Source: Nitrospira japonica (lineage in GTDB: Bacteria; Nitrospirota; Thermodesulfovibrionia; Thermodesulfovibrionales; SM23-35). Taken from it: 25,018 bases of DNA. Below are positions 141 to 25,018 of the stretch, piece after piece. A program made the translations under genes and the position numbers. Numbering within the stretch: the stretch's first letter is position 1; every line of letters starts with the position of its first letter. Where the stretch lies: contig DYFC01000056.1 in assembly GCA_020725385.1 (NCBI GenBank), forward strand, positions 1 to 25,018, given 5' to 3'. The notes under the pieces were generated by a model. That model was not told the DNA's origin, made no database searches, and worked only from the letters and a program-made list of their open reading frames with translations.

Positions 141-1109
141 TCAGGATACTTCCATTCTGTACCAGCCATTACCGAATACAGCATCTTCGCCAACGTGGAC
201 ATATTCACCAAGTATAAGCCATGGGAGAAATTCTTTTAGATTACCTTCAAAAGTAATATCTCCTATAAACCCGCTAATATCATGCTGTATATGTTGCGAT
301 TTGCTTGTCCTTACAAGATCGATCCATTTAAGATTAACATTTTTTGTCTTAATTTTTCTTGCTTTCTCTGCGAGTCCTTTGAAATCAATATCAATGTTTT
401 TACCGCAATAAGTTAATGAAAGCGCATTAATTCTATCCCTTAATCTCCTGATTATATGATGAAACTCGGGAACTCTTATTGGTATGCTTTTGCCTTTTTC
501 TCCTGTAGGATTAAATCTAATTCTTGTTGGAGTTAAAAAATATAATGTTAAGTTTCTGCTATCACTTATTTTTTCAGCCTGTTTTGTTATTTCGTTGCCT
601 GAAATTACAAGTTGGATGTTCTTTATTGTATTTTTATCAGGCTCAAATATGGATTCTGAATTAAAGCCTTTTAATACTCTGATGTCATGAAGTTTGAAAC
701 GACCTCTGTTTATACCTATCCCCCATTTCCCGAGTTCTATTATGGGAACTATTACATAAGGAAGGAAATTTATGCTTTTACCAATGAGTATCATCTCAAA
801 TTTAATATCCTGTTCTGATGAATAATCTTTTGTTATTTCAAGAGGAGGTTTTATGACAAAGCCACGTGGTGTATTAAATAATCTTTTTGCAGGATTAATG
901 CAAATTGGATTGAATATAAGAGTATATGCGCATTTTTCTATTAAAGAGCAATCCTCACAATCTGTTTTTTGTTTAATACACACGATTTTTCTTAATGAAG
1001 AGCCAAATGCTCCTCTTAGTATATTTCCTTTATTGTATGCAGGCATTCTAATAAGGTTTTCCGGATGTAGGGTAAATTCGTAGCGGGCCAAAGTAAAATG
1101 ATCAAACAT
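141..1109 (-). CDS. cas6: CRISPR pre-crRNA processing endoribonuclease Cas6 (RAMP, Zn-finger-containing subtype)
   Basis: 322 aa. N-terminal GNILRGAFG motif followed by a C-x6-C-x2-C-x5-C-x-Y cluster, FLTPTRI, GFIGDITFEG and a C-terminal Gly-rich loop HVGEDAVFGNG, as in the DUF2276-type Cas6 family. Confidence 0.88.
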   Translation of the reverse strand: MFDHFTLARYEFTLHPENLIRMPAYNKGNILRGAFGSSLRKIVCIKQKTDCEDCSLIEKCAYTLIFNPICINPAKRLFNTPRGFVIKPPLEITKDYSSEQDIKFEMILIGKSINFLPYVIVPIIELGKWGIGINRGRFKLHDIRVLKGFNSESIFEPDKNTIKNIQLVISGNEITKQAEKISDSRNLTLYFLTPTRIRFNPTGEKGKSIPIRVPEFHHIIRRLRDRINALSLTYCGKNIDIDFKGLAEKARKIKTKNVNLKWIDLVRTSKSQHIQHDISGFIGDITFEGNLKEFLPWLILGEYVHVGEDAVFGNGWYRMEVS

Positions 1110-23449: not shown

Positions 23450-23719
23450 CGTATTGTCAAAAGTTAACCACAGAGAACAGTGAGAAAATATTACATATCA
23501 ACATGTTATGAAAAATTTTAGCTCCTCCCCCCTGTACATTCTATTTCCCGTCATTCCCCGATTTAATCGGGGAATCCAGTTCCTTTTTCCTGGATTGTCC
23601 GATCAAGTCGGACAATGACGTGAGAAAAGGAAATTCTTTCTGAAGATACAGGGTACCACTCTGTGCACTCTGTGGTTTCATATTTGCCTCTCTTCTTTCA
23701 TGAAACTTTTGACATTACC
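23450..23719. mobile_element. Non-autonomous MITE-like element (270 bp) with 16-bp terminal inverted repeats and an 8-9 bp target-site duplication
   Basis: Left end cgtattgtcaaaagtt (23450-23465) versus the reverse complement of the right end ggtaatgtcaaaagtt (23704-23719), 14/16 identical; flanked by ttatttct at 23442-23449 and 23720-23727. Confidence 0.8.
23550..23619. repeat. Inverted doublet of 30-bp REP-like palindromes
   Basis: gtcattccccgatttaatcggggaatccag (23550-23579) and ctggattgtccgatcaagtcggacaatgac (23590-23619), in inverted orientation with a 10-bp spacer. Confidence 0.88.
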
Positions 23720-24152: not shown

Positions 24153-24536
24153 TTAGTATTCATCTTTAACATCAAGTATCCTCTTAATAATTTTCGGCAA
24201 CTCACGTGTATTAATTGGTTTTGTTATGTAATCATCTGCTCCTGCTTGTAATATCTTTTCTTTGTCACCAACCATAGCAAAAGAAGTTATAGCAACAATC
24301 TTTATTTGTCTTGTATTGGGATCGTTTTTCAGTATTTTTATTGCCTCATAACCGTTCATAACAGGCATTTGAATATCCATTAATATTACATCAGGCGTAT
24401 GAGCTTTAGCTGCATCTATTCCTTCTTTCCCATCTGTAGCTTCAACAATACTGTAACCGTAGAATTTTAAAATATCTTTCATAAGCTTCCGATTTGCTTC
24501 ATTATCTTCAACAATAAGGATTTTTTTAGCCATCAC
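24153..24536 (-). CDS. Single-domain response regulator (CheY/DivK-like)
   Basis: KILIVEDN, ILMDIQMP, AITSFAM.GD, GADDYITKP; AAGGAG ribosome binding site; GTG or ATG start. Confidence 0.95.
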   Translation of the reverse strand: MMAKKILIVEDNEANRKLMKDILKFYGYSIVEATDGKEGIDAAKAHTPDVILMDIQMPVMNGYEAIKILKNDPNTRQIKIVAITSFAMVGDKEKILQAGADDYITKPINTRELPKIIKRILDVKDEY

Positions 24537-24546
24537 AAACTCCTTT

Positions 24547-24867
24547 CAGACTAAAGACCATAGACCTTCTTTAAGTTTTCTGTCTTCAGTCTATAGTGAA
24601 CCTCCTCGCAATGTAGAGAAAATTTAAATAATCCTTTTTATGCTGACGTGCTGACGGCTTGAACCTTCAACGATATTTATCGGAACAGATAAAGAAGCTC
24701 TTTTAAGTTGAGACGTCAAGCCATATAATTCTTCTTTTGGAAAATCTCTTGTTGTTTTATAAACTTCTACTACTAAATTATCTGCCAACTGAAATGCCTT
24801 TATTTTCCTGTAATTCCTCATATTCTTCTTTTCAGTCTTTTGTCTCTGGTCTGTTGTCTGTAGTCTG
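24547..24867 (-). mobile_element. Four-helix-bundle gene cassette bounded by inverted heptamer arrays
   Basis: 20-bp imperfect terminal inverted repeats (24547-24566 and 24848-24867, 17/20 match) built from 7-mers with an AGAC core; TTT directly repeated at 24544-24546 and 24868-24870. Confidence 0.7.
24594..24821 (-). pseudogene. Four helix bundle protein (23S rRNA intervening-sequence protein / Avd-like family), frameshifted and truncated
   Basis: VY..T..FP.EELYGLTSQLKRASLSVPINIVEG family signature. An 8-bp tandem duplication (24641-24656) shifts the frame; the original frame would continue HKKDYLNFLYIAR then GSL, after which the gene is lost. Confidence 0.85.
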
Positions 24868-25018
24868 TTTCACTGGTATTGCAAAACTAAACTTACTTCC
24901 TTTCCCATGTTCACTTTCAACCCATATCTTTCCGCCATGCAACTCAACAAATTTTTTTGTCAAAGCAAGACCAAGACCTGTGCCCTCATACTTTTTTTCA
25001 TAAGGACCTTCTATCTGT
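24832..25018 (-). CDS. Sensor histidine kinase, C-terminal HATPase_c fragment (runs off the window edge; not in the ORF track)
   Basis: Manual translation from 25017: [61 protein letters not shown], containing the G2 box GTGLGL. Confidence 0.93.

Follow-up and report, generated by a model that had tools for sequence, protein, structure and literature searches.

The DNA analysed here, called the window in what follows, is a stretch of 25,018 nt from Nitrospira japonica (contig DYFC01000056.1). Near its right end, on the minus strand between the genes of a histidine kinase and a response regulator, lies the segment 24547-24867, in which the remains of a gene of the four-helix-bundle family PF05635 are enclosed by two tandem arrays of 7-nt units, inverted with respect to each other. 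With a probability of about 70%, we take this segment to be a decayed copy of a small insertion cassette without transposase; that the unit encodes no transposase agrees with what a first-pass annotation of the locus had proposed. The cassette idea is supported by sequence comparison, and the support comes from other genomes rather than from the window locus itself. The features concerned are the following, L007 and P0241 being a locus and a protein from the relatives described below (ORF, open reading frame).

24867-24833, minus strand: upstream (5') array of five tandem 7-nt units, CAGACTA CAGACAA CAGACCA GAGACAA AAGACTG (sequence reading, Tandem Repeats Finder, pattern search).
24822-24832, minus strand: 11-nt spacer, AAAAGAAGAAT, between the upstream array and the ATG of the remnant gene (sequence reading).
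24624..24821, minus strand: remnant PF05635 ORF of 65 aa (Pfam E 3.9e-17, 62.8 bits for a cut-off of 33.8, profile positions 2-54 of 106).
24641..24656, no strand assigned: 8-nt tandem duplication, TGCTGACG twice on the plus strand (Tandem Repeats Finder; 8 extra bases compared with L007 in the DNA alignment).
24586..24642, minus strand: out-of-frame continuation of the gene, HKKDYLNFLYIARRFTID followed by a stop (translation, compared with P0241, L007 and others).
24593-24580, minus strand: two internal forward units, TAGACTG AAGACAG (sequence reading, pattern search).
24547-24567, plus strand: downstream (3') array of three units, CAGACTA AAGACCA TAGACCT, inverted relative to the upstream array (sequence reading, inverted-repeat and pattern search).
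24832..25018, minus strand: 3' end of the histidine kinase gene, which extends beyond the window (ORF list; Pfam HATPase_c E 3.1e-12, profile positions 66-110 of 111).
24540..24546, minus strand: Shine-Dalgarno-like AAAGGAG of the response regulator gene, directly outside the cassette (sequence reading).
24153..24533, minus strand: single-domain response regulator gene, 3' of the cassette (ORF list; Pfam Response_reg E 1.3e-31).

Each heptamer listed in the first-pass annotation was found in its place by sequence reading. The units of the upstream array have AGAC as their core, and Tandem Repeats Finder gave 24835-24869 as a period-7 repeat of 5.0 copies with a score of 42. The 17/20 inverted repeat that had been proposed for the two ends was borne out by inverted-repeat search (24547-24566 / 24848-24867, 20 nt, 85% complementary). 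The locus thus has terminal inverted repeats, as DNA transposons and MITEs (miniature inverted-repeat transposable elements) do, and tandem 7-nt units in intergenic position, as in heptamers of the short tandemly repeated repetitive (STRR) type. The three-unit AGAC pattern AGACNNNAGACNNNAGAC matched four times in the window, always at the array region, for an expected number of 0.00, and 0 of 100 shuffles had any match; AGACNNNAGAC matched eight times, seven of them in the array region, for 0.33 expected. A lag-7 scan across the whole window detected no array besides these, and the window contains a single copy of the cassette.

The ends had also been said to be able to pair, and this was upheld. 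The two array arms form a duplex of -23.6 kcal/mol, equalled in 0 of 1000 shuffled arms and in 12 of 1000 random window pairs at equal spacing, and the terminal stem was seen in both the minimum free energy fold and the centroid fold of the region. The internal units and the downstream array can also form a local hairpin of -17.8 kcal/mol, which 0 of 500 shuffles attained. On the minus strand, the internal units are followed by a 14-nt loop, then by GGTCTAT GGTCTTT AGTCTG (to 24547), and then by AAAGGAG.

The first-pass annotation had spoken of a four-helix-bundle gene between the arrays, and the intactness of this gene is not supported. The 65-aa ORF does belong to the family by its profile match, and contains, as RASLSVPINIVE, the motif R-x3-S-x3-N-x2-E reported as conserved in the family (PMC3936711, in part). 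Its match is confined to the N-terminal half (positions 1-58 of 119 with a purpose-built hidden Markov model), so that a full-length protein of ~115-125 aa with all four helices is not encoded; ORFs of relatives have a median length of 119 aa, and only 7 of 92 are below 100 aa. The 8-nt duplication, which is absent from L007, the closest relative in the DNA alignment, shifts the reading frame. In the shifted frame, similarity to relatives such as P0241 (120 aa, 83% identical) continues up to ...FL(Y/F)IAR and then ends after the ...FLYIAR of the window, which means that ~45 C-terminal codons are missing. The lost 3' part is replaced by the internal units and the downstream array, that is by the local hairpin. 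To judge from its reading frames, the window gene is dead, a frameshifted and 3'-truncated remnant. The 3' end of the window copy resembles a Desulfobacterales locus, L036, in which 43 nt of the four-helix-bundle gene are replaced by a 73-nt gene-less heptamer hairpin (L036:6248-6320). The L036 case suggests that cassettes give rise to miniature derivatives internally or take them up by insertion.

The kinase gene reads ...CCA GTG AAA on the minus strand just before the upstream array, and the array itself encodes the last 11 codons of the kinase, the TGA stop (24834-24832) falling within the fifth unit. On the other side, AAAGGAG is probably the ribosome binding site of the regulator, given its position 6 nt ahead of the ATG (24533-24531). 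The first-pass annotation had rebuilt an uninterrupted junction by removing the segment together with one of the AAA triplets at its ends, and the arithmetic is right (CCA GTG AAA GGA GTT TGT GAT GGC TAA). Among the best 120 protein matches, no kinase C-terminus ends like the predicted ...IPVKGVCDG. The two kinases nearest over the aligned stretch including the tail (85-86% identity) have array-like tails too, and four of the 120 (P0004, P0006, P0008 and P0017), all Nitrospirota-like, have by eye a T-x-D-x-R periodicity in their tails, which is what translation of an AGAC array would give. As to the AAA direct repeat, it is present at both ends (24870-24868 and 24546-24544), but as evidence of a target duplication it was rejected: among 87 cassettes, an exact 3-bp direct repeat outside the terminal inverted repeat was found in 27, compared with 28-38 at decoy positions, which is the chance level. 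Two cassettes of L007 (L007:12153-12539) also lie each directly 3' of a kinase gene. Cassettes placed after kinases may indicate a preference for kinase 3' ends, or just the abundance of kinases in these genomes.

The first-pass annotation had suggested looking for period-7 inverted flanks around other genes of the family, and this was done on relatives in other genomes. The genome-contig relatives are 79 loci. They stand for the best 80 among 483 confirmed matches, obtained with the N-terminal half of the window protein as query, and are therefore not a random sample of the family. Generality was assessed on these 79 loci, six plasmid loci and the window. A tblastn search of the stored loci gave 93 hits, two of which were removed, one because its coordinates ran off the contig and one because its flank was short, so that 91 remained. 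A lag-7 array was found at most 120 nt from the four-helix-bundle gene on at least one side in 63 of these 91, and on both sides in 37. For control ORFs from the same loci, the corresponding numbers are 92 and 8 out of 842. The period is specific, as lags of 4, 5, 6, 8, 9 and 10 gave arrays at 1, 0, 2, 12, 1 and 2 of the 91 genes. Over 1.31 Mb, 362 lag-7 arrays were counted, 135 of which fall in the 4.6% of sequence at most 150 nt from a four-helix-bundle domain. On either side, the median array length is ~4 units. Inverted-repeat scores between the flanks exceeded the 99th percentile of the controls in 46 of 91 cases, and a terminal match of at least 10 out of 12 positions was present in 83 of 87 relatives. 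Where a co-oriented upstream ORF ends within 200 nt, its stop codon lies within the array in 8 of 35 cases and at most 10 nt ahead of it in 14 of 35.

The order array, gene, inverted array therefore recurs around homologues. According to their titles, the 79 records come from Omnitrophota, Desulfobacterota, Verrucomicrobiota, Elusimicrobia, Nitrospirota, Chloroflexota, Bacteroidota, Acidobacteriota, Planctomycetota, Gemmatimonadota, Spirochaetota, a Woesebacteria metagenome-assembled genome (MAG) and others. On plasmids, tblastn found 23 records, all cyanobacterial. By eye, the genes of the six loci examined all lie between short tandem repeat arrays; by the lag-7 criterion, three have arrays on both sides, two downstream only, and one is missed, its units being of 8 nt. 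In plasmid locus L005, the flanking arrays are direct rather than inverted. We conclude that a four-helix-bundle gene enclosed by inverted heptamer arrays is a general architecture, found across many phyla. In the literature outside subscription journals and supplements, we found no statement that non-rRNA genes of this family are generally enclosed by inverted heptamer arrays as cassettes at operon junctions, the paper on the Coxiella intervening sequence discussed below being the sole link between family and heptamers; as a class, the architecture is apparently undescribed so far.

Unit sequence and protein go together. In 23 of 37 cassettes the upstream unit is the reverse complement of the downstream unit, with at most one mismatch under rotation, compared with 234 of 5000 under the null. 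Protein distance correlates with unit distance (Mantel r 0.11, a value that 0 of 2000 permutations reach), and the unit is shared in 45% of pairs at a protein distance below 0.3, vs 1-3% beyond 0.5. As the pairs compared include orthologous cassettes, this correlation shows co-inheritance and not necessarily recognition. Among the listed matches, the nearest relatives, which belong to other phyla and lie in other operons, have units with an AGAC or GAC core (L007, L008, L009, L011 and L016). L007, from an Omnitrophica MAG, is 74% identical to the window protein, and its cassette also separates a histidine kinase from a response regulator, a gene for an HD-GYP protein coming next. The L007 protein has a solved homologue in the PDB, 2gsc (E 9.5e-23), 2rld being another; both were deposited with five chains each. 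The upstream units are asymmetric: on the sense strand of the gene, 61 of 100 units have more G than C, 21 more C than G and 18 equal numbers, with a mean of 4.2 purines per 7 nt.

Evidence for insertion as one block was provided by pairs of related replicons with and without the cassette. Between cas10 and cmr3, Picosynechococcus PCC 7003 has a cassette and PCC 7002 a 12-nt spacer instead, the flanks being 90.6% identical. Similarly, Nostoc edaphicum has a cassette at the nrdB|nrdA junction, which in Calothrix NIES-4105 is empty (40-nt spacer, flanks 85.5% identical). A junction between an integrase gene and an ORF is filled in three plasmids, and nine further plasmids among the listed matches cover the query as an empty site would; the empty junction was read in two of them and has a 3-nt spacer. 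In all three clean filled/empty plasmid pairs the empty site is without arrays, which indicates that arrays and gene form one block. The idea of a mobile cassette put forward in the first-pass annotation thus stands as regards recurrence and block-wise presence or absence in these three pairs from other genomes, and is not supported as regards the AAA duplication and the intactness of the gene.

A more direct case is given by two Desulfobacterales MAGs, in which the same cassette (L020:8467-8919, 453 bp, and L036:6009-6491, 483 bp; 88% identical over 454-487 nt) sits in unrelated flanks. Each copy ends in perfect 13-bp terminal inverted repeats, which lie beyond the arrays, and is bordered by 8-bp direct repeats of the flanking sequence (tattttaa and ttaaattc). 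For this subfamily, such ends are the signature of DNA transposition. When their terminal motif was searched across all stored loci, only those four ends were found, and no autonomous partner was seen.

Other small insertions were met at some of these sites. At cas6|cas4, the "empty" site of Pseudanabaena ABRG5-3 contains a short, unrelated direct array of AATTACG (L088:575-606), and in Dolichospermum UHCC 0315A the site is occupied by another element of 245 nt, which has terminal inverted repeats (L091:568-812); this junction seems to attract small insertions. At an orthologous intergenic site of Flavobacterium, inverted arrays of GTTTCAA/GTTTAAA form a gene-less hairpin in L042:5342-5480 and L038:6128-6190, and enclose ~550 nt with an 88-aa membrane ORF, not of the four-helix-bundle family, in L082:4959-5600; in four other loci of Flavobacterium, this hairpin site holds an insert of about the same size. 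One Nannocystaceae MAG has a four-helix-bundle gene in two copies, 99% identical and differing in context (L039:9999-10409 and L061:9996-10406), the L061 copy adjoining the 3' end of a tRNA gene with a 20-nt direct repeat on both sides. These two copies may have spread by a different route.

Cassettes are found within operons, mostly in the sense of transcription. Among them, 47 are co-oriented with both neighbours, 20 with the upstream one only, 5 with the downstream one only, and 5 are antisense between co-oriented neighbours; the 15 others lie at contig edges. Median distances of 75 and 58 nt separate the cassette gene from its neighbours. A domain scan of the neighbours covered 36 of the 76 cassettes that had both, and in 9 of the 36 the neighbours are obvious partner genes: kinase|regulator (L007), two permeases, three ABC-transporter gene pairs, HdrA-like|MvhD, HlyD|MacB, CdhC|CdhD and Cpn10|Cpn60. 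Likewise, groES and groEL are split by a cassette in six Flavobacterium species and L038. The first-pass annotation had placed the unit at operon junctions, a siting that groES|groEL, kinase|regulator and cas10|cmr3 all exemplify. In L031:8400-10360, two four-helix-bundle cassettes occur in one ABC-transporter operon, in the order ATPase, cassette, permease, cassette, permease.

Intact copies are under purifying selection. For the four-helix-bundle gene between groES and groEL (L042, L044, L052, L058, L080 and L038; 10001-10366), the median dN/dS is 0.065 over 15 Flavobacterium/L038 pairs, compared with 0.022 for groES and 0.036 for groEL, and four other pairs of cassette genes with unsaturated dS gave 0.05-0.2. 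The protein must therefore have a function where it survives, and in the Flavobacterium/L038 lineage the groES|groEL cassette protein is presumably maintained and expressed.

A possible precedent for the fate of such an insertion in a transcript is found in 23S rRNA. The intervening sequence (IVS) in the 23S rRNA of Coxiella burnetii contains an S23p ORF of the same family, described as decaying, preceded by three tandem GACAGAT heptamers and a degenerate one, the number of repeats differing between strains (PMC4990558, in part). According to the same source, the IVS has a 28-bp terminal stem, cut by RNase III at the first repeat, as determined in vitro and by mapping with rapid amplification of cDNA ends; 23S rRNA IVSs sit in loops of pre-existing helices; and the IVS is regarded as selfish, a 1993 proposal cited there taking it to be mobile, with the ORF serving this mobility. 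The window element is like the Coxiella and Leptospira IVSs in having a protein of this family in the loop and inverted repeats able to form a stem, and like that of Coxiella in its decaying ORF and its tandem GAC-core heptamers before the ORF, of which the window has five at 24867-24833. Unlike them, it is located between HATPase_c and Response_reg genes, and not in helix 25 or 45 of 23S rRNA; its stem would leave an mRNA, and the reading frame of the kinase runs into the array. An ORF within stem-forming inverted repeats and, as in Coxiella only, heptamers ahead of it are thus present, outside 23S rRNA. An Rfam scan of the window found no family at gathering score, hence no rRNA. The links drawn in the first-pass annotation to 23S rRNA IVSs and to the fold family of Avd, the accessory protein of diversity-generating retroelements, are supported by the PF05635 match, the 2gsc homologue and the literature.

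Taking these results together, we propose insertion at the DNA level: an enzyme encoded elsewhere would have placed the cassette at the 3' end of the kinase gene, most simply in a DNA event catalysed in trans. The spacer at 24822-24832, of only 11 nt, is too short for a promoter belonging to the remnant gene; from this short distance between array and ATG, the cassette would be co-transcribed with the kinase-regulator operon. In the transcript, the two arrays would pair into a ~20 bp stem that, by analogy with the Coxiella IVS, may be a target of RNase III. With such processing the insertion would be tolerable, and the cistrons of kinase and regulator would no longer be coupled. In the window copy, the protein would have been lost, leaving the hairpin and an altered kinase tail; elsewhere, the intact protein would most plausibly act on its own repeat arrays.

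Several observations weigh against an insertion of this kind, or against parts of the scheme. No candidate mobilising enzyme was identified, and the ends of the window element show no direct repeat beyond AAA. When direct repeats of the flank were sought in 87 cassettes for k = 2-11, no length was enriched over decoys. Copies within one genome are usually divergent, which argues against recent bursts of transposition: L007 has four four-helix-bundle matches, of which three are 44-46% identical to the query, vs 74% for the index copy. By the lag-7 criterion, 28 of the 91 relatives are without a period-7 array, and neither of the near-identical Nannocystaceae copies has heptamer arrays. On the RNA side, the fold of the entire 346-nt region is no better than that of shuffles (z -0.55), so that the terminal stem alone stands out, and the local 3' hairpin competes with this long-range stem. 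Finally, a wobble-pair test on the stems of 62 cassettes gave 51 G-U against 82 A-C, the opposite of what selection for an RNA stem on the sense strand would give; the test is noisy, as the register of tandem arrays is ambiguous.

We next consider other explanations. The cassette could be a resident regulatory module of the host, for instance a protein that binds its own arrays and thereby controls processing or translation of the operon, inherited vertically with occasional losses and inactivated in the window. Such a module would explain why selection is as strong as on the neighbouring chaperonins and why the groES|groEL cassette is conserved in the six Flavobacterium species and L038; it would also fit the orientation bias suited to co-transcription (47 vs 5), the lack of general target duplication, the divergence of copies within genomes, and the gene-less heptamer hairpins kept at an orthologous intergenic site. 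We nevertheless consider it unlikely. The empty sites of close relatives have stop-to-start spacers of only 3-12 nt (40 nt for nrdB|nrdA), empty is the majority state at the integrase site, operons that are normally contiguous are interrupted, related proteins with related units occur across phyla and operons, and the same cassette was found in unrelated flanks with 8-bp target duplications (L020 and L036). Alternatively, the arrays may have been there before the gene: inverted heptamers prone to slippage would already have formed a hairpin, perhaps one acting as terminator or processing site, the gene would have landed in its loop, and the arrays would belong to the target. This would contradict the absence of arrays from the empty site in the three clean pairs, the fact that unit sequence tracks the protein and not the host or site, and the position of the L020 and L036 arrays inside the terminal inverted repeats and target duplications; we hold it to be improbable, even though, of 75 pairs of inverted arrays, 29 are without a four-helix-bundle gene between them, many with loops of 5-225 nt, in a sample biased to loci holding such a gene. 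Other points in its favour are the Flavobacterium hairpin that holds an unrelated membrane ORF or nothing depending on the species, the unrelated heptamer array at the "empty" cas6|cas4 site of Pseudanabaena ABRG5-3, and the location of 23S IVSs in loops of existing helices (PMC4990558, in part).

Two further explanations were rejected. PF05635 is reported as an Avd-like family in loci of diversity-generating retroelements (PMC10053308, in part), so that the window gene might be an accessory gene left from such an element with some repeat debris. This is very improbable, as such an element would include a reverse transcriptase and a template/variable repeat pair, and neither was found among the scanned ORFs of the window; the flanks are short tandem 7-mers and not a pair of ~100-nt repeats, and no reverse transcriptase was found beside the 36 relatives scanned. 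Mere chance in low-complexity sequence of an AT-rich genome accounts well for the AAA repeat, which is at chance level. For the arrays its probability is negligible: it is refuted by the shuffles, 0 of 100 of which had one three-unit match and 0 of 1000 of which equalled the arm duplex energy, and by the recurrence of the architecture around homologues (63/91 vs 92/842 controls). The preferred reading thus remains that of a small insertion cassette, decayed in the window.

How does such a cassette compare with known systems? Like non-autonomous, MITE-like DNA transposons, it ends in inverted repeats, lacks a transposase, measures 320-480 bp and has miniature derivatives devoid of the gene, and one subfamily (L020/L036) has 13-bp perfect ends with 8-bp target duplications. 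Unlike these, most cassettes end in tandem 7-nt arrays that differ from one cassette to another, they carry a passenger gene, they show no general target duplication, and their copies within a genome are divergent instead of near-identical. In general, duplications of 8 bp are made by several DDE transposase families. Avd of diversity-generating retroelements is of the same fold family according to the literature (PMC10053308, in part), but the window has neither reverse transcriptase nor template/variable repeats. We know of no description of Avd genes with heptamer flanks.

Heptamers in excess in intergenic regions, without explanation, have been reported for Xanthomonas (GGGAATC) and Nostoc (GGGGA(C/T)T), Xanthomonas having 70-75 convergent pairs able to form hairpins (PMC4692102, in part), and for Beggiatoaceae (TAACTGA), with a horizontal spread "with no evident mechanism" (PMC4679880, in part). 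A term search in the full texts of these two papers found neither "S23" nor "four helix". Like the window arrays, these repeats and the STRR sequences are tandem 7-nt units in intergenic position, often abutting start or stop codons; the unit sequences differ from those of the window, and STRR sequences are cyanobacterial whereas the host of the window is Nitrospirota-like. In addition, 18 23S_rRNA_IVP genes were counted within cas loci, for example between cmr2 and cmr3, and were read as having a function linked to CRISPR-Cas (PMC3936711, in part). The cmr2/cmr3 junction is the one that is filled in PCC 7003 and empty in PCC 7002, and the filled/empty pairs and the arrays suggest that the cas-locus genes of the family are general insertions at operon junctions rather than CRISPR-linked genes. 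Already known, in sum, are the protein family, its presence in 23S IVSs, its relation to Avd, the Coxiella heptamers, the excess of intergenic heptamers and the 18 cas-locus genes.

A wider reading would join all of these into one unrecognised class of mobile elements spanning many phyla. An Avd-like protein would recognise its cognate 7-nt arrays and promote spread or retention of the cassette, at the DNA level or through an RNA intermediate; host RNase III would cut the stem; 23S IVSs would be the special case of insertion into rRNA; many of the orphan heptamers, whether in arrays or in hairpins, would be fossils of the class (cyanobacterial STRR, Xanthomonas GGGAATC, Beggiatoaceae TAACTGA); and the "cas-associated" genes would be insertions, not Cas components. 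We put this forward tentatively, as doubtful in its entirety. RNase III processing of the window stem, in particular, is suggested by analogy.

The remainder of the window is ordinary chromosome, with alaS, recX, recA, ilvC, psd and others. The encoded RecA shares 98-99% identity with proteins labelled as coming from Nitrospirae MAGs and ~90% with those of Thermodesulfovibrionales. Neither a transposase nor a reverse transcriptase domain was found in the 22 ORFs of the window that were scanned. The intergenic region after an HD-GYP regulator gene contains a compound palindrome (23546-23623) with arms of 34 nt, 79% complementary, a perfect 11-nt inner hairpin and a G+C content above that of the surroundings; either a small repeat element or a terminator would fit. 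A lone ORF of the Cas6 family (141-1109, minus strand; PF10040, E 1.6e-16) lies beside alaS, and no CRISPR-like array is present in the tandem-repeat listing of the window.

Should the class be real, it would trace to one origin the ORF-bearing IVSs of 23S rRNA, the excess of intergenic heptanucleotides, and the scattered, many-copy genes annotated as "four helix bundle protein", and the CRISPR-associated reading of such genes would have to be revised. It would represent a kind of insertion that is tolerated in essential operons like groES|groEL, probably via processing of the transcript. For annotation, C-terminal tails encoded by arrays, as on the kinase of the window, would be insertion artefacts and not native protein. 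Finally, it would point to a role in nucleic-acid recognition for the stand-alone relatives of Avd.

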